Shown one piece after another: positions 1,715 to 59,399 of a stretch of DNA of 64,000 nt. The notes under the pieces are model-generated. The model worked only from the letters and a program-made list of their open reading frames with translations. It was not told the origin of the DNA and did not search any database. The position numbers were made by a program, and so were the translations under genes. This DNA comes from Raillietiella orientalis (lineage: Eukaryota), in assembly GCA_036172245.1 (NCBI GenBank), contig JAYWIR010000011.1, forward strand, positions 2,232,001-2,296,000. Direction: 5' to 3'. Numbering within the stretch: the stretch's first letter is position 1; every line of letters begins with the position of its first letter.

Positions 1715-3732
<2,018 letters not shown>

Positions 3733-12623: not shown

Positions 12624-12868
12624 AAACCATTGCATGTGACCTCATATAATAAGGTAGTTTATCCCTGTGTAATAACTGTACCACGTTACAGTTACTGTTA
12701 CTGTAACATGATACAGTTGTTACAGTCAATGTATCATGCATCGTGTTACAGAAACATGTGTAATTTAATTATCTGCTGCTTAATTAAATGCATGTACATG
12801 AAATCCGTGGCGAATGCTGTGATTGTTCGAATATCTCGAAGCGACGTTATACGTGCATCCATGTTATG
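12624..12868 (+). repeat. Dispersed repeat, copy 2 (with internal GTTAC-rich insertion)
   Basis: Homologous to 11002-11178, with extra GTTACAGTTACTGTTACTGTAAC sequence at about 12686-12735. Confidence 0.7.
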
Positions 12869-21877: not shown

Positions 21878-22305
21878 GGCCCCGTACAACGCGGCGAAGG
21901 AACGGCCCCTGGGCGCTGCGGATGAATTTTGATTTCGCGGCCCAGTGTCCGTTCGGCTGTTTATAAAAAAAAAAAAAGAATGTTTGGATGGATTAAGCAG
22001 GCTGAACTGTTGAACAACGAGAACAACAGAGAGCTGAGACCACAGAAACCTTCAAATCGGTTAACGAAATATCAGCGAAATTCTGAAAGTTTTTGTTTGT
22101 TTGTTTTTTCAATTCAAGTTACATAAGAAACACTTTTCATTATTTCCTTCTTGTTTTAAAGTGACGTGACAGATCTTCTGCTGTTCTCACGTGTAAGGTG
22201 TTTTATGTTTTTTAAATGAAGGAATCGGTTTATTTTATATCCATCATGTGATCCATGTATAACCACGGGACTCCTATAACGCAGAATGTACTCCTCGCGG
22301 TTCAC
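21878..22305 (+). mobile_element. Tigger-like MITE, copy without insert
   Basis: Starts CCCCGTACAACGCGG. Internal blocks AACAACGAGA, CGAAATTCTGAAAG and TTGTTTTAAAGTG and the right end ATCCATGTATAACC..CTCCTATAACGCAGAATGTA..CGCG all align with 57047-58065. Confidence 0.75.
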
Positions 22306-22950
22306 GAGACGGTCGAGGAGCTCCGCTGGAGAGACGTCCGGGAGGTCGGCGTCGGGCGCATCCGGACGTCGCCTGAGTGTCGCGCAGACGACGACGACGA
22401 CGATGACGCCTGCGTGCTGTCCCTCGGCCTCTTCTCCGGGGAGCACCTCGATGTCCTCCCCGGGGACCAGCGCACCCTATTCCGCCTATTCGAAGCCGCC
22501 TGGGACAGCTTCCTGCACGACTCGGCGCTGCTGAACCGGGTGACCCCCTCCTGCGAGCACGTCTACCTCACCCTGTCCGCCTACATCGAGCTGGAGCGCT
22601 GCGTGCGCCCCGCCATCATCACGAAGGACCTCTGCGTGGTCGTGCTGGGCCGCGACGGAGCTCGGAGGTCCCTGAGGCGGCTGTTCACGTCGACGGGACA
22701 GGGGCGTCACCCGTTCGAGACCCACCGGCTGAGCGGCGTCTACGAGGTGCAGCTGCGCCGCTGCACGGGAGCACGTAGTCCAGGGATGCAGCGCCGCCAG
22801 AGGCGGGTGCTGGACACCAGCGGGGTGTACGTGCGCGGCGAGGAGAACCTCAAGGGTTGGGCCCCCCGCGGCGACCACCTCCTCTTCGAGCACCAGTGGG
22901 AGCTGGAGAAGCTGACACGCCTAGAGCACGAGGTCCTTCTCTGTGTTTGA
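22255..22950 (+). CDS. unc-104: Isolated kinesin-3 unc-104/KIF1A-B tail fragment (DUF3694 region), 231-aa intact ORF; partial duplicate, chimera or retrocopy
   Basis: [39 protein letters not shown] and [44 protein letters not shown] are diagnostic of KIF1/unc-104. Homology spans ~22299-22935. No motor, FHA or PH exons were seen elsewhere in the window. AATAAA at 23018-23023. Confidence 0.9.
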
Positions 22951-25500: not shown

Positions 25501-26158
25501 GGTTGGGAATACAAAGGCAGTGCGTAGCAGCCAGACATGCAATGTGAAAGCAATGTGAACACACACTTGAGGATTTCAAGCGGAATGCATTCAGGCTGGC
25601 ACACGTGTGCAACTTTTCTCATCATTGCCGCTGTCGCACTTGGCTACCGCTGAGCATTTGGAAAACGGTCCACGGAGAGTTCGGGAGTCGTTCAAGACTG
25701 CGCATGAAAAAAAGGAAAGGAAGAAAGAAAGGTTTATCCGAAAAGCAGCTTCACTCGTTGCCAGCATCCCTTTCCAGCAACTGGAAAGCGCTCTCGGGCA
25801 GTCGACCTCCTCGTTCGAATCAGCTTCGCAGAGGATAGGGAGGAATCAGGAAGAAGTATGGGGAAAATCGAATAAGGGGGAAAACTTGTGGAAGGGACGG
25901 CGGGGGATGGGGTGGGGGGGAGAAGACCCTCTGGAAACTTATAAAGTTGCACATGCTGCAGCAGTCGCACTGGTGCACGTGTTAACGGGGAGTTCGTGTT
26001 TTCGGAAAGTCACAGGGAAGAAGGGATCGGGAGAGCCGAGGGCACACTCGGGACGTTCCCCGGTCTTGGACGCCGTCCCTTCGCGCGCGCACGCACCTTT
26101 TCGTACGATCTTTCCCGTTATGTTTACCCTGATAAATCTGCTTTCCTTATTTGCTGTG

Positions 26159-29100
26159 TCAGTGATATGTCACTTGGAGAATGCTGTACCCCACCAATCC
26201 CGCAGGGAGATGCATGTTTCCCTTATTGAACAAAGATGTCGTAGGATATGTTGCCTTATCCACGGTCAGCCCGTTCTTGTCTCCTGAAGCTGGATCTGAA
26301 ACCAAAAAAAAAATCACATCACCATCGGACCAGACATCGCTGTATTTGCCACAAGGAAGCCCAAATGTTTCTCGGGGAAAGAACAGAAGGGATAAATTGG
26401 GGCTTGGGATTTCAATTTGCGAAGGCGTGGCCCTTCGCTAAACGATCCGCCACATGAAACCACAGGTGCAGCGGCAAAAGGAGACGAACACTCCCCATGA
26501 TTGGTCCGCGCGGCGTCGGGCCCCGTAACCGTGGATACCGGTGTTCGAGTTCGATAACGAGCACGCGCCGTGACGTCAGCATCGGTAATTAATGCAGAGC
26601 GCGGCATTTGTGCGGTTCGCCCCGCACCGAATGCGTACCCTTGGCAACGGACGTGCCGGCTGGAACACGCAAACGGCTTCCGACCCTTTGATTTTACCTG
26701 CGGATCCCGGATTGGATTCGATCGGCAGATGGAGTGCCTGGGGGTAGGGCGACGGCTCGGCACGTGGGGACGAGGGCTGGCTGACAACGGAAGGGACTTT
26801 CTGGTTTCTGCGCACGTCGCCCCACGAGCCCCTGCCGTGGAAGCAGCACCGTTGCAAGACTTGCAGGAAGCCCGCGTGTGGCTAGGCGGCAGCACTCCCG
26901 CCCGCTTGCGACGCCGTGCAGAAATGCATGGCCACGGCGGGGGCGATGGGGCTCGCGGAGGCGGCTCAAGCAGTGGCCGGCGGGCGACCACCCCGAAGAG
27001 CGGAGGGAGAAGCGAGGAAAGGCTGGATCGGTCCGAAACGATTGGTCGCGTCGTGAAGGGTGGTAGGTGGCGCGAAACCTGCCCTGGGGTCAGCTGCCCG
27101 CGGCAGCGACCTTTTTCGGCGGCCCGTCTGCGGAATCCATCAGCCGCAGCTCCCCGCGGGCGGCGCACGCGCCCACGAAGATCTGCTCTTCGAGCGAGGC
27201 TTCCGGAAATCCCCGCCAGTCTTCGGCTTCAGAACGCCGCCGTCCCCCCCCCCCCTTCCTTGGTTTGCTCTTCCTGCCGCGCTCGAGCCTGGGATGCTCT
27301 GGAGTCATGGGAACACGTGCGCGAATGTCGTCGCGCGCCATAGGCAGCATCGCAAGGCGAGCAGGAAAAAGAACGGGTTCCCGGAGCTCCCTTCCTGCGC
27401 TCGAGCGGAGTCCTTCCCCGAGGAGACGTTCCTCTCCCTCGAGCAAGGGGAGCGGGCGGAGGGGTGCGCGCGGCACGCGACTGCCGACGGCGGGAGCCCC
27501 TCGCGGTCACGCGGGAGACTCCGGGAGAGTTTACCGGCGTCGCGGAGCCGTGAAGAGCGCGCGCGCGGCCAGTGGGCAAGGGAGGTACGGTGGGAATTCT
27601 TTCCCCGAGAAGGGAACCCTCCCGGGCTCTTCCGCTAGTTGTTCCGAGGGCGAGGCTGCGCATGAGAGAGCCGAAGCCGCAGGGAGCGCGCCCTCAGAGA
27701 AGAGGCTCCTCCCACTCGGGGGGCAAGAGAGGCGCTGCAGCGGATTCACGGCACCGCGCCCTCCTCCCCCGCAGCAGCTCCGCCTCCCGGAAGGAGGGGT
27801 TCTCTTTTTCCCTTTTCCTTCCCTGCCCAGGAACGGAAGGAGGGAGAAGCAGCAGCGGCGGGCGACCCCCCTCCTCTTCCCACCTTTCCTCATCACCCTC
27901 CCCCCCAACCAAGGCGAGAGGATCACTCACGCTGGCAGGAGTTGTAGGGACCGCGCCCTCTCCTCGCCCTCTGCGTCCGATGGTTCTTGACGAGGAAGAA
28001 GAGGACCAAAGCGCAGCTTCCGCAGAGGACCAGCAGGAGGCTGGCAGAGACGATGGCCAGCAGGGGCACCTCCATGCTGAGCAGCCTTCCCAGAGGCCCC
28101 GAGTCTGCTCCGGAAAAAGCAACAGCGAGGGATCGGTCTCTCTCCCTTCCCCTCCCCCCTACCTGGGCAGTCCGCTTGCGCGTCCTCGTCGCTCCCGTCG
28201 TCGCAGTGGTCCACGCCGTCGCAAGTGAGGTCCCTGCTGATGCAGAACTCGTTCTTGCAGGAGTACTCGAGGCATGCGTGCTCTGGAAGGGGGGGGGGGA
28301 ATCAAGTCAAGAACGCCGGCGGTGGCAACGTCGCACCCCCCGGAGGGCCCTGTGAGACTTCCCAAAGAGCCTTCCGGGCGTGCCGGCAATGACTGACTGC
28401 CCGCACTCGGCCTAGCCCGGCATCTCCCCGACGCGCCGGCGGGCAGCCACCGGAGAGAGCGCTCTCCCTCCCCCTGCCCTCAAGGGAGGCGCTGAGCACG
28501 AGTGCGCGCAGAGATGCCAGCCGAAGGAAGGATCTCCGGAGGGGCCTCAAGCGCCGAGGTCGCGTCGCTTGGCGACGAGGGCGTGAGCTCCCGGTCCTGC
28601 CTCTCTGTGAGCACCCTCCAAGCCTGCGTGGCCGCTCGGAGCCCTCGTCCAGCCTTCAGCCTCCTCCAAGAACCCGAGGGTGCAGTGCCACGCGTGACCT
28701 GCTCGCACGTTCGCAGATGGCGGACGGGTCACTCCCTGACGGTCCCGGAGCGATGTCCTGCCGCCGCCATCGGCGCGAGGCTCACCTATCTAGGTGCGAG
28801 GCCTCTCCGACCTTCCACGACCCTCCGAAGGAGGCTCCGGAGTTGGTACGAATCCCCTACCGGATTTTCTCCCTCCCGTGGTCACGGTGTGACCCCCGAC
28901 TCGCTGGAGATGGGTCCCCTGACCTTGGCGCGGTGATCCCCTACAGCGTCTCCAGTTGGTCCGAGGAATTACACCTGATTTTCGGGACCCCTCAGGAGAT
29001 GGCGGCCGACCCTGCGGCCGCTCTCGAGGAGCCATGTCCTCGGTCTTTCCCCGCGTCCCGCTCCGCCCCCGGCGGCGGCGGCAGCACAGCAGCGAACAGA

Positions 29101-32100
29101 CCGTGGAAGGTCGGGCCGAGCAGACGAGGACAGGGGCGGCAGCAGCTCGAACCCAAGGTCGAGCGATGACCCTAGCGATGTCCTCGGAGGCCCCCAGGGA
29201 TTTGAGTTAGGACGCGCACGTGAGACAGAAGCGCCTACGTGTGGTCGGCCCCGCGGGTCAGAGGGACAGCCAGGAGCGACGTGTCCAGAGGGAGGTTCCC
29301 TCCGCAGGGGAACGCCCGAAATCCGGGCGCTTCCACGCCCCTGAGTCCGGAAGATCCGCTCGCCGGTCGGCACCGCAGGGAAGGCCGGTCTCCCTGTAAC
29401 GCGCGCGTCGTGAAATTGGAGGATGCTGTTCGGGGATCTGCGACAGGAGTGCAGCAGAGGTCCCGGAGAGCTCTGCCTTGAAGGGGGAGCGCTCTGACGT
29501 CCCGCGACTGTCCCCCACCCCCACCCACCTCCTCCAGAGGCCGCCATCCCGCGGCGAGCGCTAGCAGACGGAGGAACAAGCGAGCTGGTCAGAAACTCCC
29601 GCGCGGTCGAGCCACCCTCTCATGCTTCAGGGCGGGGCAGCAGCCCTTGACCCGTGTCCTCTTCCCTCCTCCCTGCACGCCACAGCTCCTTTTCCATTCG
29701 GGGAGTGCATGTCGGGGAACCCCGCCCGGTCAGCGGCGCGCGAGCGCCTTGAGGCTCCTCCCGACAGCGCGTGCGACGAGTCCGACCCGGGAGAGAGGCA
29801 ATCAGGATGCTTCCAAGACGCCGCGGCCGCGCCCACTCACTGATGTCCTTGAAGGCCGTGATGACCAGCCGGAAACCGTTGCTGTCCAACCCCCAGGAAT
29901 CCGTGACGTACTTGAAAGTGACGTAGTTGAAGTTGGTGTACGTCACTCCGATCGACTCCTTCGAGCTGCGGCAGGACAGGTCGTACTGAAACAGAAAGGC
30001 GCCGGTGGTTGGCTGTATCCTCCCTACCCCCACCCCCTTGCCCCCCGGGTGCCGCAGTGCTCGGCGGGGTGCAGCCGGGCGGCCGCTATATTCTTCCCGT
30101 CGCTCTCTCGCTGCGGCCGCGCAGTTTACCGGAACGGCTCGCCAACTTCCTGAATCGGTCTCGGTGGGCCCCGCGCGCGACCTCGCAGTCGCGCGGTTCT
30201 GCTCCCATCCCAAACGAGCGCGCCAATGCGCAACCAACCGGCGTGGTTCCCTTCTTCCGCTCGGTTTGTGTCTTCCCGGGGTAGACGGAGAGGACACCCT
30301 CGGGATCAAGCGAGGAACCGTGGCGTCTTCCTTCCTCCCGGGAACGGGGGGGGAGGGGAAGCGAAGCGGAGGGAAGACTCCAGCGGGCGGGAGTCCACCT
30401 GTCCTCAGGCAGGCCCTTCCCGGAGTCCGTCCATGGTCCGACCGCTCGAAGGCGCTGGAAGAAACTCGCCACTGCGTGTTTTTCTTCCGGCCAGTCTTCC
30501 GCAGTCCACTTTGTCTTCTGCGGTCCGCTTTTCTCTTGTCGAGCAGGCGGAGGCACGCATGATGCCGAGGAAGAAAAAGAAGGGTCGCCAGCATCGCGCA
30601 TTCACGGCGGACAGTGCGGAAGTGCGCGGCACCGTTTCCGGTGCGGACTCCAGGCAAGCTGCAGAGCGCGCGGGTGCGGACCGCAGTCAGCGGATGGAAT
30701 GGTGGGATCGCGAGGGACACGCGCGCCACAACTTCGGGCGGCGGCGGCGGCCCCAGCGGACGGCACCTCTGGCGAAGCAGCTAGGCGGTTGATTGACCTT
30801 CCGCCTGATCAGCGCGGGGGGTCCTCTGGTCCTCGTCGTCGACGCGAGGCTTCCAGGATCAGCTCCACAAGGGCGGGGAAGCGGAAGTGCACAGCCGACA
30901 GCTAGGTCGTCTCCGAACGGATGCTGGGGGCAGAGACGCGAGTCAAGAGGCAAGGCAGGAAGACGGCAAGGTCGTTCGCAAAAGTCGGTCGGAAGGAGTT
31001 CCACGGTCCGTCCCGGCTCTCCAGCCGTGAACAGGGGCGCGGGCGAGAACGCGTTCCGCTGAGTGACGATAGGCAAAGAGCATGCCCATTCCACCCACCC
31101 ACTCAGCCGCAGCGTAACCGGAGCATCGTGAATGCTTTCGTCGTCGTGGAAACGCCCCGGGGCGAGCACTCTCTACGGATGACTGCCTTCTCCTCCCCAT
31201 TCACGAAAGTTGCCTGCTGCTCGCCAACTCGCGCACTCAAGGACCGCCTGGCGCACGCGGGGCACACCACTTTCGAAGGCAGAGCAAACTCCCACGCGCC
31301 AGAGTTGGTGCGACCTCCCTGCTGACTTATCCTAGAATCCGAGGAGCCGTGGGACCCGTTCGCTGCTGCAGATCGAGCTCCGTTCGAGACACGGAAGTGA
31401 CCGCGGCAAACGCACGCGACCATGGTAGGTGGGAAACGCGCGGGCTTTTCGTCGGAATGCGTGGATTCGCTGCCTGTTCCAGGAAGGGTCTGAGCGAGAG
31501 TGACCTTGCGCGAGACGTGCATCGGAGAGGTCGCAGAGCCAGCCTCCTCGGGGTCCACTTTGTGGTCTCCTCTCGCTTCCGTCAGGGTGACCTGACGCAC
31601 GCACGTGCGTCAGCTCACGATTCCACATCTCACGCGTGCGTGCGTGCGTTGGTGGTGCAGAGCAGACCTTCCCTCCCTCTGCTCCTCCATCCGCATTGTC
31701 CCTATCTTTGGCCAGAGCCGCAGGGAAAGCTTGAGGAAGGAGCAAAAGGTGCGGTGGGGATACTCGCGGTGCTTCGGTTGGATGCGCAAAGACTTTCATC
31801 ACGAAACCGCAGTTTCCGCGGTGCGGTCACGGATGCCCCAGGTCACCCGAGGCAGCCTTCGTTTTCCTTCTTGGCTTTGCAAAGTCTTCGACGGGGTGGA
31901 GGGGAGGGGGACGGCTCCCGTTTTGGGTTGCAGGAAGGGTCAACGGGGGGGCAGAAGGAGACCTTCCTTGCCCCTACCGCCGCGTTCTTCCACGATGCCG
32001 CAGGTCACCCCTGGCCCATATCGAGGCTTCCCTCGGGAAGCGCGAATCCTACCCGGAAGAGGAGCGACGGCGCGTGGCCGCGGGCGTGTATTCCCAGTCT

Positions 32101-35100
32101 GCTCTCTCCTCGGGGTTACGCCTGACTTCCCTTTGACTCCCGGCGGCCGCGACTGCAGATCCAGCCGTTCGTAGCAAAGATGGGTTGCCATCCGCAACGT
32201 CGCAGGGAAGAGAGAAGAGGAGAGTTGCCTCGGACCGTTCGGAGCAAGACTAACCTCTGACCGAGACGGATTGGAGGGGGAGGGGGGTGAGTCGCACGGT
32301 CGCGAGGAGGCTGGCTGTTCTTCAGGGGGGAAGCGGTTTCGGAAGGACTCCCAATGCCGGAAGATGGGGCAAGGTGGTACTGCCCCGACTGACGGGGACT
32401 GACTGTGCGTTCCCTCCCGGATGCGCAGCCGCCCACGGTCGAAGACGGTGGTGGCGCGCTCCCGAGAGGGGCGCCGCCGCACCTTCGGAGCAGTCGCCGG
32501 CTCGTCGCGGGCGGCCGCCGTGCGCTGCGGCTACGGAGTCTCGCGGGAAGCTGCCCAGGAGGCAAAGGAGGTGGCCCGCCGTCACCCTGCAGGCCGTTCC
32601 AGGGGGATGGCGGCTGCAAGAAGGCAATCGGCCATTCGAAGGCCCGCGCCGTTACTGACCAATCAGAGTGATGCAGGCCGCGGATCGGCGAGCGGAAGCG
32701 TCCGAATCGCAGATGTTCACCGAGCGGAGTGTGTGAACCGCCGCGGAAAAAGGGTTGCGTGCCGCTCTCCTTTGAGGAAACGGGCGGGCATAGAAGCCGG
32801 GGCATCCAGGGGATTCGGGGATCACTTCTCTCCTTTAATTAATGTTCCCCGGAACAAAGACGAACCTCTTTAAAAGGGACGCCGGGAGAGACTGGGCGTT
32901 GGTGTTAGCAACGAACGACTGCAGCGGACGCCCAAGAGTTCCTCGACACAGTGCAATCAGGAGACAGGAAGCGTCGCTTATGCTCAGCAACAATGAGGCT
33001 GTCAGTAGGGGCAGAAAGTCATAAACAGACGTAGGGACGGGACGGGGTTGCTGGGTACGGTGGTAGCTGCCACCTGAAGCAACTACCACCGAGTGAGGGC
33101 GCTGCGGCTGCTGCTGGCTGCACGGAGGATTCGACTGGGACTCCCAAACTCACGGGGGGAAGGCGTCGCTCCCGCCGCTCGTCCCCCGCACGATGGTGGG
33201 TCGAGGCAGGAGGAAGCCTGCGATTCGACGGGAGGAACATTCGCGAAGTGCTCCTCGAGGAGTAGCCGCGGATGGAAAATTCCGGGAGGAGTGGCGCGAT
33301 CTGTCCGGACCAGGTCTTCTCCTATGCCGGGAGAGGGGGGAACTCCGGAATTTCCCTGTTCTCCCGGTGTCCTTCCGCCAGCATTGTTTCCAACCGGAAG
33401 TGACCCGGCCTGGGTCAGGGGCAGCTGTCGGGAACGACGACCGCCGGCAGACCAGAGCGGAAAAATGGCGTCGTCGCGCGCTCCTCTCATCGGCCGCCAG
33501 ATGGCACGTTGCCATCGGCGGGAAAAACCGCCCCCGTCGCCGCCCATCATCATTTTCTGGGTGCCTCGGACCGTTCGGAGCAAGACTAACCTCTGACCGA
33601 GACGGATTGGAGGGGGAGGGGGGTGAGTCGCACGGTCGCGAGGAGGCTGGCTGTTCTTCAGGGGGGAAGCGGTTTCGGAAGGACTCCCAATGCCGGAAGA
33701 TGGGGCAAGGTGGTGGCGCGGACCCTCTGCTCTCGTCCTCGAAATTCACCCTCTCCCCCGTTGCCAGGAAAGGGGAGTGGCCTTTCGGAGGGGGGAGAGG
33801 CGCTTTTCGAGGGTGCATCGCGTCCAGTGATGAGCTTCGGGTGCTTTTACGGGGGAGCGCGGACTGGACCCGACGCGCGTGCGCACGAGATGGTCCGGCA
33901 GCCACCTGTGGACCACTTCCAGGGAGTCGAAAATCTCGTGCGCTGCACCCCGCTAGAGGGGGCGAGGAGCCGCCGGATAAAAATGGGTACGCGAGTGCAC
34001 CGGAAGGAGACGGCGCCCTTGGGGACCACGCAATGCCTGGTGGTCCGAACCCGCTTCCCCTGGCCCCCGAGGGCGCGCTCGTTTCCGAAAGCGCTGCGGC
34101 TCCTACGGTATCCGAGGTGGACAATTTCCCCTTCCGGCCTCCCCCGAGGGCACGTCTCACTCTCTCTCCACCAGAGTCACGGAACGTCTTCTGCCCCTCT
34201 GACCGAGAATGCTCCCAGCTGCCTTTTCTGCTCTCGTCCTCGAAGAGGAGCGCCCCCCTTTTCGGACTCCCCCCTAAACAGACTGCAGGGAGTGACCGAT
34301 CTGCCAGACGGTCGCGACTTCCACAGCGATGGGGAGGGGGCACGGCACTGCCGGACCCATATCCAACGTGCTGCGCGCGGCAGGCAGCAGCCCGTCTTGG
34401 ACAGGGTCCCTGGGACGCGGCGCGCAGGTCGACGGGAGGGGAGGTCAAGCGGACGAAACCCTAAAGCCCAGCTTGGACGTCGAGCCGTGCGCGCGGCTCC
34501 AGGTAACGCGGCTTTGAATCCCGCCCGGGGGAGGGTCGGTGTCAAGAAATGAAGGGGGCGGTGAGTGGGCTCCGAGTCTTCCCCGCAGGGTGACGCCGGT
34601 TGGCCTCGAGTGGCTTCGGGTAATGCCCCCGTCGACTACTCGGGGCTGGAAGTCGGCCTTGAATGCTCCTTCCGGTATCCAGGAAGTCCTTCGAGGTTCC
34701 CCTCCGTTTGTGGAAATGGAGCCGTCCTCCCTCACCTCGGCTCTGAGACCTCTCCGAGGCACCTCTTGTGAAAGGTGACTTTCGCACAGACCCTTCGCAC
34801 ACACCCCGTCCGTCTTCGTCAGCCATACCTTGGGGGGCTCGCTCTCCACGAGACGGAGACGCGACCTCGCTCGCGGCAACCGGTGACGCTCTCGTGACCG
34901 CGGGCCACAGGCTGACCGCCGCGACTTGGAACTGTCCACGACAGCGCGTCTCGATCGCGCGCGAGCGTCACTCGGGGTAGCAGATGCCTGCGGACGCGCG
35001 TGTGGGCCAAGCATACCCCTTGCGAGTGGCGCGGGAGCAGAGTCGATCCTTCGACGTCCCGGCGGCGGCGCTCCCTGAAAGTTACGCAGCTACGGTGTCG

Positions 35101-35630
35101 CTTCCCACCCTCCTCCCAAGGAGACTTCCCACCGGGCGAGGGCAAAAGTTGCCGCCGACGGCGTGCTGTCTTGGCACTCGAGAAGGAGTTCCGAGGAACC
35201 AGCGGGCTGGCCGAAGCGGCGGTGAGCGTGGCGCCGAAAAGACAAGCAGCGCTACGGCGGCGCAAGTCGGAAGTTCCTCTCCTCCCCCTGACTCTCGTTT
35301 TCCGAACAAAGCGACGACGACGAACGAATGGTCGGAGCGGCTGCTCGGCGCCTCCAGGCAGGGAGGAGAGGCCACGCATGCACAGCGGGCACGGACTGAC
35401 CTTGGCTTCTCCGTACGCGTGGTTGGCTTCGTATATGTACAGGTGGTCGTTGCAGTCCAGGTTCAGCTTGTCGAACCGAAGCATCAGCTTCTGAAGAACG
35501 GTCTCCGTCTGGAAGGTGACGATGCAGTTGAGGTTCCTCTCGTTCTGCGAGGTCAGCACGGCGCCATCGATGGTGCGGGCGATTTGGCTGAGGAAGGCTT
35601 CCTGCTTTTGGCACAGCTGAGCCATCGTAT
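26159..35630 (-). CDS. loaf: CUB-LDLa single-pass membrane protein, homolog of Drosophila lost and found (CG6024); 5'-partial
   Basis: Exons 35630-35401 (IDGAVLTSQNERNLNCIVTFQT..LRFDKLNLDCNDHLYIY), 29985-29841 (DLSCRSSK..NYVTFKYVTDSWGLDSNGFRLVITAFKD), 28282-28163 (LDLa: CKNEFCISRDLTCDGVDHCDDGSDE) and 28104-27931 (TM helix) have canonical, phase-consistent splice sites. The last exon 26295-26159 is tentative (strong poly-T acceptor, correct phase). The signal-peptide exon was not identified. Confidence 0.88.
32226..32378 (+). repeat. 153-bp perfect direct repeat, copy 1
   Basis: Identical to 33562-33714 on base-by-base reading (offset 1336). Confidence 0.95.
33562..33714 (+). repeat. 153-bp perfect direct repeat, copy 2
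   Basis: Identical to 32226-32378. Confidence 0.95.
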
Positions 35631-38600
35631 CTGGAAGAAAAGGGGGAGCTGTAGCAGCAGCAACAGCAGACGGACTCGTCCGGAGTCACCGACGTATCGC
35701 ACTCGCGGTCCTGGCTGCCCGCCCGCTCCGCGGCTTCCCGCGGTCGTCCTCCTGGCCTTGTCGCTCTGGGGCGCCACCCTCCCTGAAGAGGAAGACCGGA
35801 GGCGGGGAGGTCCCTACGGAAGCCCGGAAGCAGAAGATTTACTCGGGACGGGGGGCTTCCGCCTGATGCGACCGGGAGAGCGGGTGAGGGGGATTACAGT
35901 GGCGCCTCCGAGAGGCGGGCGCTGCTCGTGACCGGCGGCGCGCTGACGGGAACGCGCGCGCGGCTTCCCGGGAGTATCCCGCCGGTGGAGGGATGACCCG
36001 CCAAGGGAGGGCGACACGCGAGGCACCATTCAGGCAGTCGATGGCAGTGGCGCCCGAGCAGCAGGTGGGGCGGGGCGCCTCCTCGCATCAGTCCTGCGGG
36101 AGCGCCCCTCCGGGGCAGAGGAACCTCTGCCCTCTTTCCCGATTTCTCCCCTCTCGGGAATGGGGTCGCTTGCTCTGAGATACCCCGAGGGATGCCTCCG
36201 GGATGCGCGGAGGGCCACGAGTTCTCGGGACCGTCGGCATGCGAAGGGGAGACCGCTGGATACCTCAGGCGAGCGCCCCCGCAGGGTGGGCCTTGAGAGG
36301 ATGCCTGGTTTGACTCCTGAGAGGTGGAAGGCGGAGCTCTGCTGGAGGAGAGCGGCCAGGGACTCTTCGCGCCTGCAGGCCGCAGCATCCGGGCAGGTGA
36401 GGGCCCCGGGGTGCGGGAGAAGACGAGGCTGCCCTCGAACCGGCGTCGCCGCTGGAGGCATCTCAGGAGCGAAGTGGTGCGCGAGAGCTGCCCACGTCGG
36501 GTACCCACCGTAAGGAGGCGGAGACCTGTGGCAGCGCGCGCGAGGCAGCAAAGAGCACCGCCGCAGACGTGGCTCGGCGGACGCAACGGAGGGATCGAGG
36601 GATCGGCGTCGACGCGTCTCCACGGAGATGCGTCGACGGGGGTGCGAACGTGCGACGGAAGGCCGCCTCTTCCTCCACAGCGAGACCCCTCTTCCTCGGG
36701 CAGGACAGATGTCCCGCCCGAGGACGGTGGTCCAGCAGGACGCTGAGGCCGTTGTCGTCGCAGCACGGTGCAGGCGCCGCCAGCGAATGCGGATCCGGGG
36801 GATTTTCTGCGCTGCAGGTGGGACAGGCCAAGGTCACGATCGGTGACCACCGCCTGCAGACACCTCGCGTGCATCCTGCGACCGGCACTCGGGAGCCTCG
36901 GGGAGGAGCGACCGTGGTCGTGAGCAGCGTTGCGGAAGACTGAGCGGCTCAAGTCGGAAGCTCAGCGCTGTGAACTCGAGGACGAGCGCTGATTGCGAAG
37001 CGCCCGGGGCTCACTGGCGGAACACGGTGGGTGTTCTTGAGCGCTCTGGATGCCTCAGCCCCGAGGAAGACCTCGACCCACAATGGGGAGGAGGGGGGCT
37101 GCAGTCCAGAACCAGAAGGCAGGCGCAAGAGAGGGGGAACGCACACGCAACGCTTCTTGCCCGTGGCAAGCGATCCTCAGGGGAGGAGTCCGGTCTGCTC
37201 GTTGGCTGGCAAGAACGAGTGCCGAGTAGAAGAGTTTCCTTCTCTGGCACGAGCGCCACGGGGGCGTCTTCCGGCCTCGCCCGTGGCGCGCTCGCGGCTC
37301 CAGGGCAAGAAGCAACTCGGCAGGAAACGCGCGGTCATGCGCTCGCATCGGATAGGCTGGAGCCCCCTTCCCTCTCCCGAGCCACTGCACTGGCGTGGCT
37401 CGAGTGTGGTCGCCGGGAGGCGGGCCGCACCGGCGGTACCAGTTCCTCCTGGACATTAAGGATACTGAGGCGTGGGAGATCAGGAAGCCGGAGAGGCGCA
37501 AGCTGATGAGGAAGTGGACTCGCAGAGACCTCCCGGAGTCCGCTCGTTCTGGGAACAGATCCCAGAGGGGGACGCCGGTCTGGGTGCTCAGCGGAGAGGC
37601 AGACGGCTCGCGTCCCTGCGGATCGCCAGCGCCGCTCTGGAGGAGGCACGGAGAGAGCAGGCACCGAAAGTTGGTTCCCTTGTCCGCCGCTAGAGAGGGG
37701 AACTTGCACCTGCGGTGGCGACGCGGCGCCAGTGAGCCGGAGGCGTCGCAGGGAGGTGCGAGGGACGCAGCAGGACGAGAGAAGGAGGCGCAGCAGCGCC
37801 GGGAACAGCAAGGAAGGCCTGAGGGAGGAAGAGCAAGGATCGATGGCGGTGGAGCTCCAGGTCCACTTTGCTTCCGGAAGTCTCCCGCTGCGGCGACAGG
37901 GAGGCGCGAAGGCGGCACAGGGCTGGAGTGGCTGGGAGCGGAGGCGCAGCGTCTCCCGGGAGGGCATCGCTCCGCGGCCCCATCGTTGGGGAGGGTGCCC
38001 GCCCCTCCGTACTCCAAAGAGGAACCGAGGGAAGGTCGCCCGGCGGACAAACGAAAATGGCGCCTCCCCCCTCCCCCCCTTCTGCGCGAAGGGGAGGGAA
38101 CTGCAGATCTGCTCCTGCGCGCGCTGCGCCCGACGGGATGATGGGCGACGGGGCGGATGGGGCTGTCACGCACCAAAAGGCCAACCCCCCTGCTCCCGAT
38201 GAATGGGAGACGCCGCTCCGCGCCCCTTCGATGATTCCGACAGGTCGCGAGTGCGCTCCCCGCTGCCGCTCCCGTCTCCCACGCCGGGAGTGCCGCTCCG
38301 CCCGGCGAGCCGGGAGAAATTGATCCGTCGGACGGACGCTGCCGGGAGCGAGCAGCCCGCGCGGCGGGAGGGCGTGCCGCGTCCAGGAGCAGCCGCTCGC
38401 CTCCGGAACCGAAAGCGGGCGGAGGTGCGCGCGCACGGACTCCCCGGAAGGGGTGAGTGCGTCCGTCAGGCGAGGGTGCACTGCCCGGAAGGAGGCAACG
38501 AGCACGGTAGCGAAAAGGCAACGAAGAGAGATGCGCTTCCTCCCCCCACTCCTCCCCCTGCACAACGCACACGCGAGGGAAAGGGGGGCAGGGGCCAAGA

Positions 38601-40549
38601 AACGAGCGCGGTGGACGCGGGCGCCTCGGAGCCGGCCACCAGGAAAAGCGCCAGGGTTTGTGTGGAGCCGACGGACAGACGGTGGAGGAAGGGAGGGGGG
38701 AGCGGTGGCGCACCCTTCGCCAGAGCTCTTCAAAGGTTGGCGCTTCCGCCGACCTCCGAGTGCAGGAGGCACTTCTTGCAGTCGCTCTGTGGGGACCGAG
38801 GGCAGGCGAGAAGAGTCCTCGTGACCGGAGTTCCTCCAGCGGGAGCCCCTGGGACACTTGGGACTGCGAGCGGACGTCAGGCAGGAAGGACGCGCGGCGA
38901 TCTCACAGGGCAACGTCTTGGGTGACTCGGAACGAGAGAGCCAGCAGCTACTCGCGGTGGGAAGCAAGTTCAGAAGCGCCAGATGACTGGGAGGGAGCCG
39001 CGACTGCAAACGGATGGACGCAACTTGGCGGTCGCCCGTGAGTGTTTTCGAGGGATCGTTTCGGCAACCGCAAAGTGAATCGGGAAACGTGCCGATTTTT
39101 TTCCGTTTCTTCCTTGAGGATCGGCGGAAAAATCAACCATGAAATCCATGTTATTTGCGAAGGGAAATCACAAAGATGGAGTTTTTCAGGAGGAAAAAAA
39201 GATCATCAGTTCAGGATCCGTTCTGCAGATTACGCTTAGCTGTACACGTCATCATGCTCTTTCTCCGCTAACCAGCATACGGTCTCCGCGGACGGACAGC
39301 AGCTTATTGAACCACGGATTATCGATCACAAGAGCCTACACTGAAGTGGTCTCGGAAAATTCCGCCTACGTGCGCCTGCGGACATCTGCCTCCATCGTCA
39401 AGCACGCGGAGCCGCATGTGTTGTCCAGACATTCCGCAGAACGGTCGCCCCGCGAAATCCTTTCGGGACCAAGGGGGCTTCCGATCCATCCGTGGGGAAA
39501 AGGCTCGGTCCACGGCTTCGGCGAGCGCACGGAGACTCGTCGCGAGGGGGGAGGGGGGGGGGGGAACGAGAATCACCGCGTGCCTTTTTTTCGCACTGCG
39601 CAGGGGGCGAAATCGAGAAGACACCGAAAATGCCGCACTTTGGTCCACGCACACGCTGGCAACCCTGCACAGACTCGAAGAATGCCGGGCGGGCCAAGCT
39701 CGTAGCCGTGTGCCCGCCCGCTCCCGCGATTGTTGAAGCGACGTTTCCGTGACGACGGTCCCGGAGGGAAAGGGGCCTACGGCGAAGCAAGTCGGACTTC
39801 CGCCCCGCAGAGTTTCCGGCTGAGCTTCACCTCTTCTCCCACCCATTTTTGTGGGAACTCACGTGAAGAGTTTCGCAAATTTCAAGCGGCAGTTCGGAGC
39901 GCGGTGCAAAGGGACTCCATTCGAGTCCTCTGATTGACGCACGGACAACTCCCCCATCTTTCCGACGCCCACGTTTTGTATTCAGCGTTGCCAAACTCTC
40001 TCAAAGTGATTTATATACAGATCAAAATATAAATGACTTTGTATATCAGCAAGCGTGAAACGAAATTCGTATCGAATTGATACGAGATTTGTTTTTTTCT
40101 TTAACTGATACAAGAACTAAACCTGCTAACGTAACTAATAGAGAGGAAGATTCTCAAGAAAGACATCTTCTAATTTGAAACACGAAAGATCTTACAAATC
40201 CTACGGCTACAAATGTAGCAACCGTTATTCAAGTAAGCTTTTCAATGGCTGGTCCCAATTCCATGCAAAAGTCCCATTATTTCAGGCATGCAGGCTTAAG
40301 ATTCGATCCTAACAGACATTTTTGTGTTTCAGTAGGTTTTTTTTTTTTTAAAAAAAAAAAAAAAACCTACTTTTCCCTTCATCCTTTCATTCGTTTTTCC
40401 ATCTTTATTGCAGAGACACTGAGGTGTTGACATAGATCCACTAGTTCATCAACACTTTCCACGGTGCGGTGCCTTGTACTAATAAAAGGTGCTCCATGAT
40501 CTGTTGATTATTTGAAGAAGAAGAAAAAGAAGAAGAAAGGGGGGGAGAC

Positions 40550-51373: not shown

Positions 51374-53769
51374 TCAGGAACAGTTTCTAAAGCAGCCTAT
51401 CGACAGGCTTTTCCTATTGGGGTGAAAACACTGGTAATAAACTAGCATACATGCGATTCCCGAGAAAAACAAACAGTAATGCATTGCAAATACCAGTTGG
51501 TGCAACCAAAGCTTATCGGAGACCCTTACAAACCACAGTAAGATGAGAAGGGTGTTCTCTACCAACATCACACCATAATAGGTGACGTAACGAATGCGAG
51601 TGCGGGTGTCCTTTACGTTGAAGTAACAGAAAATGTAGGCAAATCCCACGACAGCATCGAAGAACAACTCCTCGACTCGAGAACTGCAAGCAGCCGTTTT
51701 CTGTACCATCAACCATGCTGTCATGAGTGTCCAGTGAGCTGTTAGCACTACAAAAATCCAATAGCCGTAAGTGGATGCAAAGAGTGCAAGCGTCTGAACA
51801 CGTGAGGCTGAAATTCACAAAAACATGTTAGCTGCAAATTTCAGGGACGTAGAAAAAAAGACCGCGTGCACTTCCGACAACGGAAACGGCCAAACATCTA
51901 CAGCAACCAGTACATAATTACGCAGACGGTGATACATAGCAAGTAGAAGTAAGGTATCCGGACGAAAACTGAGATTTCACTTCGGGAATAATTACATCCC
52001 GTACGTTCAAGTCTTGGGAGAATGATGCCGGCAAGGATCGGCGAAACAAGAAAAAAAAAATTCTGGCAATCATGCACCACCTTTAACCTGGCTTTCTTGC
52101 TGCAATGAGATGGAAAGCACGTGCAATGCAGGTGATGGGAAAGTAAAATAAAAAAACAAAAACAAAAACACGCAAAATGCTGTTTCGTCTTGATTTGCTC
52201 TGACACCGTTTCCATTTAAAAACAAAACTTCACTTTCCAAACAACTTAAATGGCACCATGACGTGCAGATTATGACAATTGATATGATTTTCATCCCAAT
52301 GATTTCAAAGTGTTTCGTCTCGGATGTCATTACATGGCAATTTACACTTTAAAATGTGAAGTCAAATGTGCTTTTATAGTAACACTGCATTTCACAATGC
52401 TTTTCTCCAAGCACACAAGAAACAAACAAACAGTGCATAGATCAGGGGATTCTCTAGGAATTAAAAAGTATCATAAAAGAGGCTTCCTGTGACTTCTCAA
52501 CTTTCCAATGAAATTCAAAGGAAACCATATAATAACAGAATTCGCATCATAAAAAAGGAAGGTATTATCCATGACAAAACATGCAATTCAACAACACGGG
52601 CCAAATCAAATATTTTTCAGAAAAATCCCCGAATACATAAATGGTATGCGAATAGTTAAATGTCAATAGATTGATGCCTGTTTGAATCTTTAGGTCTCTG
52701 TCCTTATTTCTATATTTACCTAAGGTGAGGAAATGCCAAATAGTCTGGATGACTAATCCACAGATGGAAATATTCCGTTTTCTTTGATCACAAAACCGAT
52801 TAGCTCTCTGATAGGAAGTTTGTGACCATGATAAACTAACCAAAGAACTAAGTATAGCTAGGATTTTCAGACAAACTGAAAAAAAATTAAACCTTGATCA
52901 AAAAGTATTTGGAATTCTAAATCACAGCAACTTTTTTTTTACCTACTATGTTTTCTGATGACTTGAATAAATCAGGTGATTCCCCAAGCAAAAAATGTAA
53001 CTGGATCAACAGCTGTGGGGCAGATTCCATAAAGCTCTCAAATAATCGCAGAAGAGCTGCATCAGCATCTTCAAATACCATCAAGCTATAATAGTGAAAT
53101 CTAACTTGTGGATCCACACTTTGGTAACACTTCACTGCATATACCAAGGAATCTACATATCTGTTTGAAAAACATTACAGAGTTCAAAAAGAAATTCTAT
53201 ACCTAGCTGAAAATTATTATTATATCACTGGAAAAAAAAAATCATCTATTACAACTACTAACCCACCTTAAAACTGGTCCCAACTGCAAAATCAGTAAAC
53301 AGATCCTCAGAATCCATTTTTGAAGGGAAACTACAGGTAACATGGGATTTCCTGTATCATTAATGTACCTAAAATTGTTGGGTACATCGTTAGATACCTG
53401 CATCAACAATGAATCAGATTCTGGAATCAAATTCCATTGCTCACGACAAAGTTAACTTCAAATTTGTTTTCAAAATTCTACATGTGCATTTCGGAAATAA
53501 CATGCATTTGCTCACCATCGTAAACTAACAAGGGTCATCACAATTGAAGGAACCACAACAAACATCAAAGTCAGACTGAAATACCACATTTGATTTTTGG
53601 AATAATAATAATATGCTATAAACAAATCCATGAAGATATCGAAAACGTAGCTACAAATTGAGAACACAAGAACACAAACATCCAAAGCTCCAACATGTAA
53701 AGTGTTTGGGATTGCATCCACATTATCATTTTGTATCATGGGATTATCGGATGGATTTTCTTGATCCAT
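51374..53769 (-). CDS. Xkr: XK-related protein (Xkr phospholipid scramblase family), 5 exons, 387 aa
   Basis: Exons 53769-53516, 53368-53267, 53160-52943, 52875-52720 and 51807-51374 total 1164 nt, phase-consistent and GT..AG. Motifs SYVFDIFMDL, QLGPVLRYVDSL, EDADAALLRLFESFMESAPQL, YIFCYFNVKDTRTR and YYQCFHP. Confidence 0.95.
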
Positions 53770-54820: not shown

Positions 54821-57463
54821 TTTTAGAAAAGGGAGCCTAATGAGCTTTCCGGAACAGATAATGGTTATGAAATGCTCCGAGGCGCATGCAGAGGAAGATA
54901 TTCACGAGAGGCAGAGGATTACGGACCACTGGACCCTGGAATTTTTCAGTCAGCAGATTTCCAATTCAGGTATTTGAAAATTATGGTGTGAAACTGTTAA
55001 TTGTTTGAAAGCTAACCGGCGAAATACCGGCAATTTTTTTCTTGCAATCATTTTCGCTTTGGCCTGCCAGTTTGAAGCCTTCTGGGAAATAAAACCCGAA
55101 GATCTAACCGCGCCCACTGAAGAGTATCAAAACTGTCGTCTGCGGTGCATGGCGACAATTAAGGGCGGAATTTTAGTAAGATCCGGGCATGCAGATTCCC
55201 TATCCAATAACTGTGTTTTTCTGAAATCCATCTTTTCATCTTTAGTATTCAAATTAAAGTTTGCTTTTTTTTTTTTAAAAAAAAAAAAGGAAAAAAAAAA
55301 CGAGTTTTGATGTACGGTATCTTACGTGCACTTTCCTCTTGCAACTTTCTGTTCAAGAAAAGACATGGGAAAGATGAAGATAAGCGTCCCTTCTCCATCT
55401 TGTCCCCACATAACTGTATAGGTAACGATATAGCCATATGAAAGGGACTTGAAAAAACAGATCAGGGTACTCCTGCTAAGAGAGAATGATTAATCCACTC
55501 CATCGAGGATGGGTGGTCTAAAACATTTGTTTGATCACAGGAAAGCATTACTGATGCTGCAGCTGGACTATGTGGACGTGCTAAGAGACTTTGCATCTGT
55601 TTTCACAAGAACCATCTTCCAAATGGCAGTAGGCGTCAATAGAATAATGCAATTATTAAAAGTCACACGAAGCAATGTGATCCTATAGGTGCATAACTCA
55701 AATGTATGTACATTTCCGAAAACGTTTTCACCCTCCAATGGTGAGCATAATGAAAAGCAAATGAACTTCACTCATTGAATTTTCAATTTGCTACTGGAAT
55801 TCCTCTAACTGAGCTACGGCGTTGAGGATTCAGATCTGTTCAAATGCTGTTTCGACTTGTTTTTAACAGAAAACGTGTGAGGATGCTTGCACCGTCACTT
55901 GTTGATTCAGAATGTTCGATATTCAAAATGATGGATGGAAGGCTTTGCGGGTATGGACCTACTCTCGTACTGCTGCTTCCGATCAACAGCAGCAGGATTT
56001 TCTTTTCCCCCAAATATGTGAGAACAGAGTGGTTGCTTTCGTTTCTGCCAGGCAGAAGAATTCCGATCTCCGAGAATTTCTTTCACGAAGTTTCACGAGA
56101 TGCACGTTCTTTCCCACGATTCCTCCTTGGTACCCATAAATGAGAATTCCAAGATCCTTCCGAAAGGTAAGTAGTTTCAAGGAAAGCTACTCCGTCTATG
56201 CAATGAAAGACATCACAGAACAACCGCGACTGTTTACGACTCGCAGCTCCTATTTGCAATCTTTGTGAATGAAATAAGCAAAACTGCAAAGACGAGGTTA
56301 CCGCGTGATTTCCTGTCTGTTTGATTCATATTTTTGAAGATGCACTTAAGCCAAGCATCTTCTAAAACGTGAAAATCAGTGCTGAAAACACCTAAAAGAA
56401 GAAATCAACACTTCTCTGGAGGGGAATAAACAAGGAGGGCCTTTCCTCGTCCTGCTTGTATCATGTATGGGGCACAGCGAGTTTATGAGAAGCAATAAAT
56501 CCCTTTGCAGATTCCTCTTTGCCGAGTGTCTTGTAAACTTCTCTTGTTGGATAGCAAGAAGCAGTCGGTTCCCGTTATGGGAGATACATTTAATCTCCCA
56601 GTTACAGCACGAATCGTAAAAAGGCATGGAAACTGAATAAGCATTTACTTGTAATAACAAGCATCGCAGTAAGCATTTTACTCGTGACCCTCCATGCCTG
56701 TAGGAGGCGTTTTTTCCTCGAGTTGGGCCTCTCGAATTCGCTTCTCCTATCTTCAAGAAGCTTTTCTTCCTCGTCGTTTCCCCCCCTTTTTGAACGGACC
56801 AGAAATGCATTTCTCCTCGAAGGGCTGATAAGAATGGTAGTCAATGCGAAGACCATTGCAGCGGAGCACCCCTTCAATGGGTACCGAAGTGACCGAATTG
56901 GCACACGTCATTTTGAGGGAAAGGGAAGCGCGGGGTCATGCTAAAGAACACTCCGCCCGTCCGGATTGACCGTAGATGATCCGAAACCTTCGGCCATAGT
57001 TCACCGTTTGCCAATTGCACTCTGGTGTAGTATGAATCCTACTGTACTGTAGACCCCCGTACAACGACGATTCGTACAACGCGACCGAAAAATGGAGACA
57101 ACTCTCTTATAACGCAGCAAATCAGCCAGCCCGTAGGACGCTGTGGATAATTTTAGTTTTGCAGTAAAAGTCAAGTTCGTATACTTTTTTGAAAAGAATG
57201 GAAGCTCATTATCAAAGTGGGCTCAACTCCAATTCATTCACATTTTCGTGAATGAAATAGCTCCTGAAAGTACGTTTTTCAACAACGAGAGGGATGGCCA
57301 AAGTCTACAAGAAAATCGTTTGAACTGATTAAGTAGCAACGAAATTCTGAAAGCTTCTCTTTTTTCTTATACTCTAATTTGAAGAATACACGAACACATC
57401 TATTTTTTGTTTTGAAGTGTACCTCATTATCCAACACTGCAGCCCTAACCTATGCAATTAACG

Positions 57464-57524
57464 AGTAATGTGCCTCAAAAAAGGGATTTCTTCGATAAAG
57501 AAAATATGTCATGCACCATTGCTA
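57464..57524 (+). tRNA. trnI: Mitochondrial tRNA-Ile(GAU) copy within the NUMT (presumed non-functional)
   Basis: Acceptor stem AGTAATG/CATTGCT, anticodon stem TTTCT/AGAAA with loop TCGATAA; short T-arm region. Confidence 0.8.
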
Positions 57525-57534
57525 AACAATTAAA

Positions 57535-57594
57535 TCAAAGATAAGCTAAGTAAGCTGATGGGCCCATACCCCATTCGTGATTCGTCTCTTTGAT
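57535..57594 (+). tRNA. trnM: Mitochondrial tRNA-Met(CAU) copy within the NUMT (presumed non-functional)
   Basis: Acceptor stem TCAAAGA/TCTTTGA, D-arm AAGCTAAGTAAGCT, anticodon stem ATGGG/CCCAT with loop CCCATAC. Confidence 0.9.
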
Positions 57595-57600
57595 CCACCT

Positions 57601-57950
57601 ATTCTTCCTCCCTCAGCTTTACTTGTTTTACCTCTAATCTTTTTAAGAACATTAATTAAACCTTCCACCAATAATTGACTAATAATCTGGCTTAGCTTAG
57701 AAATCAACACAATTTCTATGTTTTCCATCATCTCAACCCTACCCATTCTATTTTCAACACATTCCACGTTAAAATACTTTCTTATTCAAGCATCTTCATC
57801 ATTACTTTTCCTATTCATTTGTATCATTTTCAATTCCTTCCCCTCTATTCCACCATTCTCCAACCATTTCACTAATCATACTCCTAAAACCAGGCATAAT
57901 GCCTTTCCATTACTGACTATTACCGATCATCAACATCATTCCTCATGCTC
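57601..57950 (+). pseudogene. nad2: NADH dehydrogenase subunit 2, 5' fragment, frameshifted
   Basis: In the invertebrate mitochondrial code: NNWLMIWLSLEINT..TLKYFLIQASSSLLFL, then after a frameshift near 57865 LLKPGMMPFHYWLL. TGA occurs at conserved Trp positions. Confidence 0.92.
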
Positions 57951-59399
57951 TCCTTGCTGCGACGTCTTGCGTACATTTGAAATCTTCTACTGATGCCATC
58001 CATCTACAACTCATAGGGCTCGTATAACGCGGAACGTATCGCCCGCGTTATACGGGGGCCTACTGCCCTACGGAATCGTAATAAGCACACGTGAAACATA
58101 ATGAACGGTGTAATGGCAGTGCTTATTGATGATCACGTAAAGTTGGATAATTCTCGCAAGCGTTTTTCATCAAGCGTAGATCGCCAATGTTTGCAAACAT
58201 TACAAGCCAAATTTTGCTAATGAGGGATTTCCATATATACCCCACCATCGCGTGATTCTTGGATTTCCGCTCATTCTAAAACACGGAAAAGCCTTCTTGA
58301 GTTATGCTTTCCAATGGTCAGAATCGCTTTTTCATTTTCCAGTTCACGTCTTCCGTTGAACAATCGGATTTCCTTTCGCCGTGCACTGATGGATGCTTTT
58401 TCTTTGGTCTTTTCACGTTCTCTGGATCCTTTTGTTTCGTTTTGTTCGTTCAGAGCTTCAGCATTCTTCGCACTCTTTGTGCGTGAGAGATGCATTTTTC
58501 TATCTCATTGCAACTGTTTTTCATGGACATTTCGAGTGGTTGCCTTGTTTTTGCAGATGGCATCGATTGCTCTGCAGCCTTAATCGCTGAAAATGTCCTT
58601 CAGAGGATTTGCTTTCTGCAAGAACACCAACAGACACCTTTGCATTGGCACGAGAAGCTGGAGAATATCAAATGAAATGAAAGCTTCTGAGCTGTGCCGC
58701 AAGTGTGATTGCGTTGATCCTCTGACCGACGTGATTCCAGGAGGGAACTGCTCCATAGAGATCCACCTTGTTTTTTTCGATACTCATCTCCTGTAGATGA
58801 ATTCTCATTCTGGAGAAGACCAAGTCAAAAAGCCCCACAAAACGGACCGTTACGTTGAAAAGCTGATACCAGTTGTAACGAGGAGAGCTGCAGCACAACC
58901 AAGTCCAAAAACCCCCGAACGCCAAACCTGCAGAAAGCACCGACATTACCTGGGAAGATGATGTGGAAAAAACCACAGCTATATCTACGAGTCGTGCTTA
59001 CCATGAGCAGTCCCTATGAGCAGCCATTCCAAACCAAGGAATGGGAAGGACCATGTGACTGGCAAGCTATTCTGGATGTATGTGCGGAGAGTCCGAATTC
59101 ACATGATTCGTCTTTTTCGCAGAGGCTCGCTTTCGTCTGCGTAGCCGGGGGCGCAAAGTCACCCCGATCCGCGCGTGGACCACAGAATCATCAGGTTATT
59201 TCCTGAAGAGAGGCACTCAATTCGTATCGCTGCCTTTGTGCAAGCAAGAGTTGACCTATTTTCAAGGAAGTCGTGCCTCGGCGACAAAACCTGCAGCGGC
59301 AGTGCTTCCGGATAGAATCGCGTGGACGAGGAGCGCCCTTTTCCTTTTTGACCTCCGCTTTCCAAACCGAGAGCAGATTGTCTTTTTGAGCTCACACTT

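Follow-up and report, generated by a model that had tools for sequence, protein, structure and literature searches.

We analysed a 64,000-nt stretch of contig JAYWIR010000011.1 of Raillietiella orientalis, hereafter the window, which was the search space for all window-wide counts given below. On its plus strand lies a small element with terminal inverted repeats (TIRs), named element A, whose two arms (57047 to 57419 and 57962 to 58065) are separated by 542 bp of mitochondrial DNA (mtDNA; 57420 to 57961). This insert, a nuclear mitochondrial DNA segment (NUMT), contains trnI, trnM and the 5' third of nad2, and is set flush into the element. A diverged family member without the insert, element B, lies on the same strand at 21879 to 22312. 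The preliminary description of this stretch had placed about 540 bp of trnI-trnM-nad2 inside an element that keeps both of its ~20-bp TIRs, and both statements held up in our analysis.

Gene content and origin of the mitochondrial insert

The NUMT reads in J-strand sense along the plus strand, and its extent was delimited by the joint match to element B, the reach of the ND2 homology and the GC-skew profile. It opens with 44 G-poor nucleotides upstream of trnI (57420 to 57463, plus strand), 42 of which (57422 to 57463) have 10% G and a GC skew of −0.58. The segment may derive from the 3' end of a mitochondrial protein gene lying upstream, in which case the donor gene order would differ from the ancestral arthropod order, in which the control region precedes trnI. 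When read by eye, one frame of the segment ends in TAA 2 nt before trnI.

Next come trnI (anticodon GAT, 61 nt, 57464 to 57524) and trnM (anticodon CAT, 63 nt, 57535 to 57597), both predicted on the plus strand by ARAGORN in its metazoan-mitochondrial mode. The acceptor, D and anticodon stems of both tRNAs are all paired, the T stems are only 2 bp long, and the 35 stem pairs of the two molecules contain no disrupting mismatch. The two genes are spaced 10 nt apart on the same strand, and the nad2 frame begins 3 nt further on. The same ARAGORN mode made 16 predictions in the window, 14 of them outside the NUMT; single mitochondrial tRNA predictions in nuclear sequence are mostly false. The trnI and trnM predictions carry weight because they are adjacent, on one strand, in mitochondrial order and immediately ahead of the nad2 frame. 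Neither ARAGORN in bacterial mode nor Rfam (57300 to 58100, E ≤ 1) reported a tRNA in the insert; both are expected to miss metazoan mitochondrial tRNAs whose arms are reduced. A degenerate trnM pattern had 0 matches among viral contigs.

The rest of the insert (57601 to 57961, plus strand) is the 5' part of nad2, approximately codons 1 to 119 of about 320, starting with ATT and identified by translation with genetic code 5, Pfam, HMMER, tblastn and a profile comparison. The fragment matched Pfam family Proton_antipo_M (PF00361) at profile positions 2 to 58 with an E-value of 2.6e-5, above the cut-off. An exhaustive HMMER search found matches to 76 proteins of the library at E ≤ 1e-3, of which the best was 51% identical over residues 7 to 85 of its 320; a word-indexed search of the fragment against longer proteins gave none at E ≤ 0.001. 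The five best full-length matches that we checked (P0004, P0007, P0008, P0011 and P0015) are all Proton_antipo_M proteins of 320 to 340 residues. When a profile was built from these five together with the two fragments from the window, its top matches were solved chains annotated as 'NADH-ubiquinone oxidoreductase chain 2' (E 2.7e-91).

The nad2 fragment contains one +1 frameshift, located between about 57820 and 57878. With code 5, tblastn placed ND2 homology at 57613 to 57849 in frame 1 and at 57773 to 57934 in frame 2, and found no other ND2 homology in the window below E 0.1. Pfam assigned no family at E ≤ 1 to the second frame taken alone, and we identify that frame as ND2 because of the alignment and the tblastn match: its sequence LLKPGMMPFHYW, in the +1 frame, aligns with the K-x-G-x-A-P-F-H-x-W block of ND2-sized proteins. 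Along the whole reading path no TAA or TAG occurs in 92 + 63 codons, and by shuffling the chance of 92 stop-free codons at the start is 0.03. The nad2 part has 6% G and a GC skew of −0.67, compared with −0.03 to −0.12 in the arms of the element and in the flanks.

Taken together, the segment from 57420 to 57961 is mitochondrial in origin, with trnI(GAT), trnM(CAT) and the N-terminal part of nad2 in mitochondrial order on one strand. The order trnI-trnM-nad2 has been reported from several arthropod groups, according to the accessible portion of the literature. A vertebrate donor was rejected because AGA occurs within the nad2 frame and trnQ is absent between trnI and trnM.

The host element and its ends

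The left arm of element A (plus strand) was delimited by sequence, motif matches, and BLASTN and global alignment to element B, and the right arm (plus strand), which carries a terminal hairpin, by the inverted pair and BLASTN to element B. The left TIR, GTAGACCCCCGTACAACG, lies at 57049 to 57066 on the plus strand, and the right TIR, whose reverse complement is GTAGGCCCCCGTATAACG, at 58046 to 58063 on the minus strand; both were recognized from the inverted pair and the core motif, which is enriched in the window. The two 18-nt arms are 979 nt apart and match at 16/18 positions (89% complementary), or at about 17/20 by eye when the outer CWG is included. In the left arm the motif GTAYAACG(C/A)(G/C) occurs three times, at 57058, 57073 and 57106, and the hairpin of the right arm consists of 12 nt at 58021 to 58032 that are 100% complementary to 58043 to 58054.

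An inverted pair of this kind is unremarkable by itself, as the window contains 128 inverted pairs of at least 18 nt within 1.5 kb. We therefore take the ends of element A to be real transposon ends because the terminal motif recurs, not because of the inverted repeat alone. The core CCCCCGTAYAACG has four matches in the window at ≤1 mismatch (57054 on the plus strand, 58046 minus, 21879 plus and 21861 minus), where 0.07 would be expected; none of 100 shuffles reached four. Likewise, the right-end pattern of motif, spacer, inverted motif and G run occurs twice, at 58022 to 58057 and 21820 to 21872, with an expected number of 0.00. The same motif thus stands at the ends of elements A and B and of a third piece, remnant C, described below.

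Without the insert, element A is about 477 bp long. It is small and non-coding, with no open reading frame (ORF) of at least 100 codons and no Pfam match in its arms. Pfam was run on 128 window ORFs (20 + 108); the window holds 204 ORFs of at least 100 codons, and the 79 outside the scan all lie in a GC-rich block at about 26 to 40 kb. Neither element A nor any of the 128 ORFs scanned has a transposase family (0/128).

The family ends of element A read CCCCCGTAYAACGCGG. One end begins CAGTAG and the other CTGTAG, and a CTG stands at both 57047 to 57049 and 58063 to 58065. These three bases could belong to the TIR as its outer part (CWGTAG) or represent a target duplication of 3 bp. With the TIR taken to start at TAG, CTG lies outside both ends; by a rough estimate a 3-bp match would arise by chance at about 0.08 over plausible offsets, and it is weak evidence. 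The flanks show TA on the left only and CC on the right.

The element had been called Tigger-like, a label that none of our tests supports. A CAGT start is typical of the pogo/Tigger group, and element A resembles MITEs (miniature inverted-repeat transposable elements) of that group in its one CAGTAG end and its TA left flank. It differs from them in that TA is present on one side only, the CTG is possibly a 3-bp duplication, and no transposase domain was found. With CC rather than TA at the right flank, CTGTAG at the other end and no transposase in the 128 ORFs, membership in pogo/Tigger (Tc1/mariner) is unsupported.

The terminal motif had no match in open-access full text, and the terminal hairpin pattern had 0 matches in metagenome contigs. 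One match to the hairpin among genome contigs (n = 1), in a bacterial metagenome-assembled genome, was rejected as unrelated, being a perfect GC-rich palindrome of the terminator type. We also noticed a 151-nt contig of a public run (X1), at depth 2, that is identical to 57145 to 57295 in the left arm. No other part of element A or of its unique flanks was covered at ≥95% in that run, so the contig may represent a repeat in that sample's organism or a chance hit at low coverage.

Element B and remnant C

Element B was recognized by BLASTN, alignments and the motif. BLASTN aligned element A to it in two colinear matches, 57281 to 57408 with 22022 to 22145 (64% over 131 nt, E 5e-4) and 57993 to 58054 with 22246 to 22306 (71% over 62 nt, E 4.5e-5). 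The local alignment of the two elements scored z = 9.1 above 300 dinucleotide shuffles, and a gap-permissive global alignment gave 286 identical columns among 340 ungapped ones. The second family member without the insert that the preliminary description had used to mark the insertion point is thus real, and spans 21879 to 22312, but at 64% to 71% BLASTN identity it is a distant relative.

Besides this one copy, the 64 kb hold one further piece of the family, the end remnant C (21819 to 21874, plus strand). It was recognized by the hairpin pattern and motif matches as a terminus of right-end type, in which the motif, a 27-nt spacer and the inverted motif are followed by GGGG. BLASTN found no internal homology to element A or B upstream of it. 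No mtDNA was found in element B or remnant C.

On these sequences, the TIR family is real and diverged. It looks old because elements A and B share only 64% to 71% identity by BLASTN, the TIRs are imperfect (16/18) and one side lacks the TA duplication.

Remnant C faces the left end of element B at a distance of 5 to 6 nt, and the two form a near-palindrome, CCGCGTTGTACGGGG-TGACCG-GCCCCGTACAACGCGG (21819 to 21894). At its other side, the right end of element B (22246 to 22312) runs into an exon of the kinesin DUF3694 family. The sequence aligned with element A's right terminus includes a possible splice acceptor, cgcAG (22283 to 22284), and the exon's first codons (NVLLAVHET...), and the Pfam match to kinesin DUF3694 begins at ORF residue 16, that is, at 22297. 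Either the acceptor and the start of the kinesin exon come from a decayed transposon end, or the final ~25 nt of the alignment match by chance.

Junctions and insertion site

Homology to the element family ends after ...TTGTTTTGAAGTG (57419) and restarts at ACGT (57962), while the ND2-like codons run out with ALLAA at 57961. When the insert is removed, the joint TTGTTTTGAAGTG|ACGT forms a 17-mer that is identical at 16/17 positions to the uninterrupted joint of element B at 22151, TTGTTTTAAAGTGACGT. The site in element B is the sole match to this 17-mer in the window at ≤2 mismatches on either strand, and the colinear homology between the two elements continues on both sides of the joint. Because the joint without the insert matches element B at 16/17, the insertion is flush, and no loss of element sequence is detectable, as judged against this distant paralogue.

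The break point lies in the interior of element A, with 373 nt to the left end and 104 nt to the right. With 542 bp of DNA that does not belong to the transposable element (TE) between the arms 57047 to 57419 and 57962 to 58065, the locus fits, by structure alone, the description of a Pack-TIR, a TIR element with cargo.

Neither the junctions nor the NUMT were found a second time in the 64-kb window by BLASTN and tblastn. A 24-nt string across the left junction had 0 exact matches in metagenome contigs. In the public run X1, whose coverage is low, four contig pieces fit the window (0.08 of words), and none of them lies over either junction or the NUMT.

The junctions also bear on the possibility of an assembly artefact, in which the nuclear contig took in a chimeric read or mitochondrial contamination. 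In its favour, the X1 contigs span neither junction, and the lone frameshift in nad2 could be a homopolymer error (runs of T and C at 57827 to 57843). Against it, the element homology picks up at the very point where it broke off, to either side of an internal piece of 542 bp, and this piece is a truncated sub-fragment of mtDNA rather than a contig end. A single break is what a chimera produces, whereas here a piece sits cleanly in a host sequence that its removal restores; for this reason we regard misassembly as extremely improbable.

Genomic context

The insert shares the 64-kb window with nuclear animal genes recognized by Pfam. They comprise an intronless Tim44 ORF (666 to 1631), exons of UDP-glucose pyrophosphorylase (UDPGP; 1857 to 3240, minus strand), the kinesin DUF3694 exon mentioned above (from about 22285) and XK-related exons (51377 to 52897, minus strand). 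The window is nuclear animal DNA. In an Atlas look-up the Tim44 ORF fell first to an arthropod cluster, which is a weak lead. The NUMT therefore lies within nuclear DNA, with nuclear genes in the window and element sequence on both of its sides, a placement that presupposes a correct assembly.

The block at 26000 to 40000 has 63% to 68% G+C, compared with 34% to 57% elsewhere, and both of its strands carry long open frames that overlap; Pfam assigned a family to none of its 9 scanned ORFs. Within it lies a perfect 153-nt direct repeat (32226 to 32378 and 33562 to 33714), with starts 1336 nt apart. A near-palindrome is also present at 12668 to 12724, where 28 nt are 86% complementary and the arms are 1 nt apart.

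Probable capture of the NUMT by end joining inside a resident element

From these results, we consider it likely that an ordinary NUMT was captured as end-joining filler at a break inside a resident old TIR element. A small non-autonomous TIR copy of about 480 bp would already have been resident at an intergenic or intronic nuclear site. A double-strand break would have opened inside it, between ...GAAGTG and ACGT..., and would have been sealed by non-homologous end joining (NHEJ) with a stray 542-bp mitochondrial fragment as filler, so that trnI, trnM and the 5' third of nad2 came in behind the 3' end of an upstream region. The NUMT would have been dead on arrival, truncated and with the nuclear code wrong for its reading, and would since have acquired the frameshift. 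Since such a NUMT would have landed inside a transposon, inverted repeats now bracket mtDNA, and the composite carries no sign of having moved. A NUMT that landed in a resident MITE was one of the two origins offered by the preliminary description, and it fits everything seen: the flush insertion, the old and diverged family, and the lack of mtDNA in element B and remnant C.

NUMTs formed by end joining provide the closest parallel. In the accessible part of PMC2567098, 49 of 90 lineage-specific primate numts are reported to have inserted without the loss of one chromosomal base, and its authors favour classical NHEJ. The insert in element A is alike in being a truncated, collinear piece of mtDNA (trnI-trnM-nad2), non-coding in the nucleus and flush as in those cases. 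It differs in its target, which is the interior of a copy of a TIR transposon, so that inverted repeats bracket the NUMT.

The paired tRNA stems and the stop-free nad2 together suggest, as far as these features of the sequence can tell, that decay of the NUMT has been limited. Several points weigh against the account given above. The anatomy, the mitochondrial origin, the nuclear setting, the flush joint and the empty relative are shown, whereas the order of the two events, with the NUMT later than the MITE, is inferred, as are the end joining and the lack of later transposition. The tRNA stems bound NUMT decay loosely, at roughly <5% by our own estimate, and the two TIR mismatches imply a similar figure per arm, so these figures do not separate the two ages. 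Moreover, the NUMT departs from five ND2 relatives at several conserved residues, for example SFIP vs SMFS and GxAPFH vs GMMPFH, and its decay could be greater than the open frame implies. The statement that no bases were lost depends on a 17-nt local match to the distant paralogue, element B.

The internal position of the break admits another cause for it. The break may have come from the element's own biology, through abortive excision, a stalled fork or an internal fragile site, and mtDNA may have been used as filler without later spread. Such an event would be a single-copy Pack-TIR made by gap repair, and would differ from the end-joining account only in what caused the break. In the animal Pack-TIRs described by Tan et al. 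in 2021 (PMC8277862; here and below, as far as its accessible text goes), breakpoints of single-copy cases are biased to the interior of the element and the authors invoke fragile sites; the break in element A, at 373 nt from one end and 104 nt from the other, is likewise internal. However, the gap filling described there copies a nuclear template, mostly in cis, whereas organellar filler joined flush is a signature of end joining rather than of templated synthesis. The sequence of one locus cannot reveal the cause of a break. We consider such a transposase-linked capture without spread unlikely.

In a further scenario, mtDNA was taken up by a family element elsewhere and the composite then transposed to its present site, as a Pack-TIR in the strict sense with possible sister copies. 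A cargo-carrying MITE that spreads mtDNA was the second origin offered by the preliminary description, whose word 'packaged' leans on it. The structure is permissive, in that both ends keep the terminal motif and subterminal copies, the cargo is internal and the composite is about 1 kb long. Multicopy Pack-TIRs have been found in frogs, alligators and flies (PMC8277862). Yet neither the junctions nor the NUMT is repeated in the 64-kb window, though a second copy of the family and an end remnant are there; the ends of element A differ at 2/18 positions and have no clean TA duplication; 0/128 scanned ORFs encode a transposase; and the visible family members are highly diverged. Multicopy cases are also a small minority of animal Pack-TIRs, for example 3/23 in frog (PMC8277862). 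We therefore judge that mobilised cargo is very unlikely at this locus. That element A is or recently was transposition-competent, and that the family's transposase copied the composite to other loci, is likewise very unlikely in our view, and the window contains no positive evidence for a spread of mtDNA by the element.

Relation to known cargo elements and significance

Tan et al. reported 370 Pack-TIRs in 100 animal genomes, most of which were single-copy and had arisen without transposition (PMC8277862). The composite in R. orientalis fits the operational description used there, non-TE sequence between two parts of a TIR element, its 542-bp cargo lies within the same order of magnitude as the median reported there (224 bp), and it is single-copy within the 64-kb window, like most animal cases. 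It differs in that the cargo is organellar and not derived from a nuclear parental copy; the string 'mitochond' occurs 0 times in the main text of that paper. Its joints resemble end joining rather than template switching, and no evidence of transposition or amplification was found. By structure alone the locus is also comparable to the Pack-MULE and Pack-TYPE elements of plants, to the extent that PMC8903248 is accessible. As the available part of PMC2572040 describes it, Turmoil-1 of C. elegans is, as here, an animal DNA transposon with foreign sequence between or within inverted ends. Its cargo consists of nuclear coding fragments within inverted repeats, whereas here it is mtDNA inside a decayed non-autonomous copy.

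Events of this kind are known, and the locus adds one more instance. A NUMT nested in a transposon is to be expected now and then, because NUMTs land at chromosome breaks and transposons fill many animal genomes. A mobilised NUMT would, in contrast, be new, because in its accessible part a 2010 review (PMC2820518) gives numts no transposition mechanism of their own and describes their duplication as tandem or segmental. A keyword search of open-access text found no report of a transposon-mobilised NUMT, which is no proof of absence.

The composite can mislead annotation pipelines, both TE annotators that would call gene capture and screens for NUMTs or barcodes. With its flush joint and an empty paralogue in the same window, it is a clean example of filler-DNA repair, and the fragment records the trnI-trnM-nad2 order of the donor mitogenome and its tRNAs with reduced T arms. 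As it stands, the locus matters little, and the same junctions at other loci would change that: if the composite had been copied to other loci, this would be a NUMT that a DNA transposon had amplified, the first to be described, and a route by which mtDNA could spread through the nucleus.

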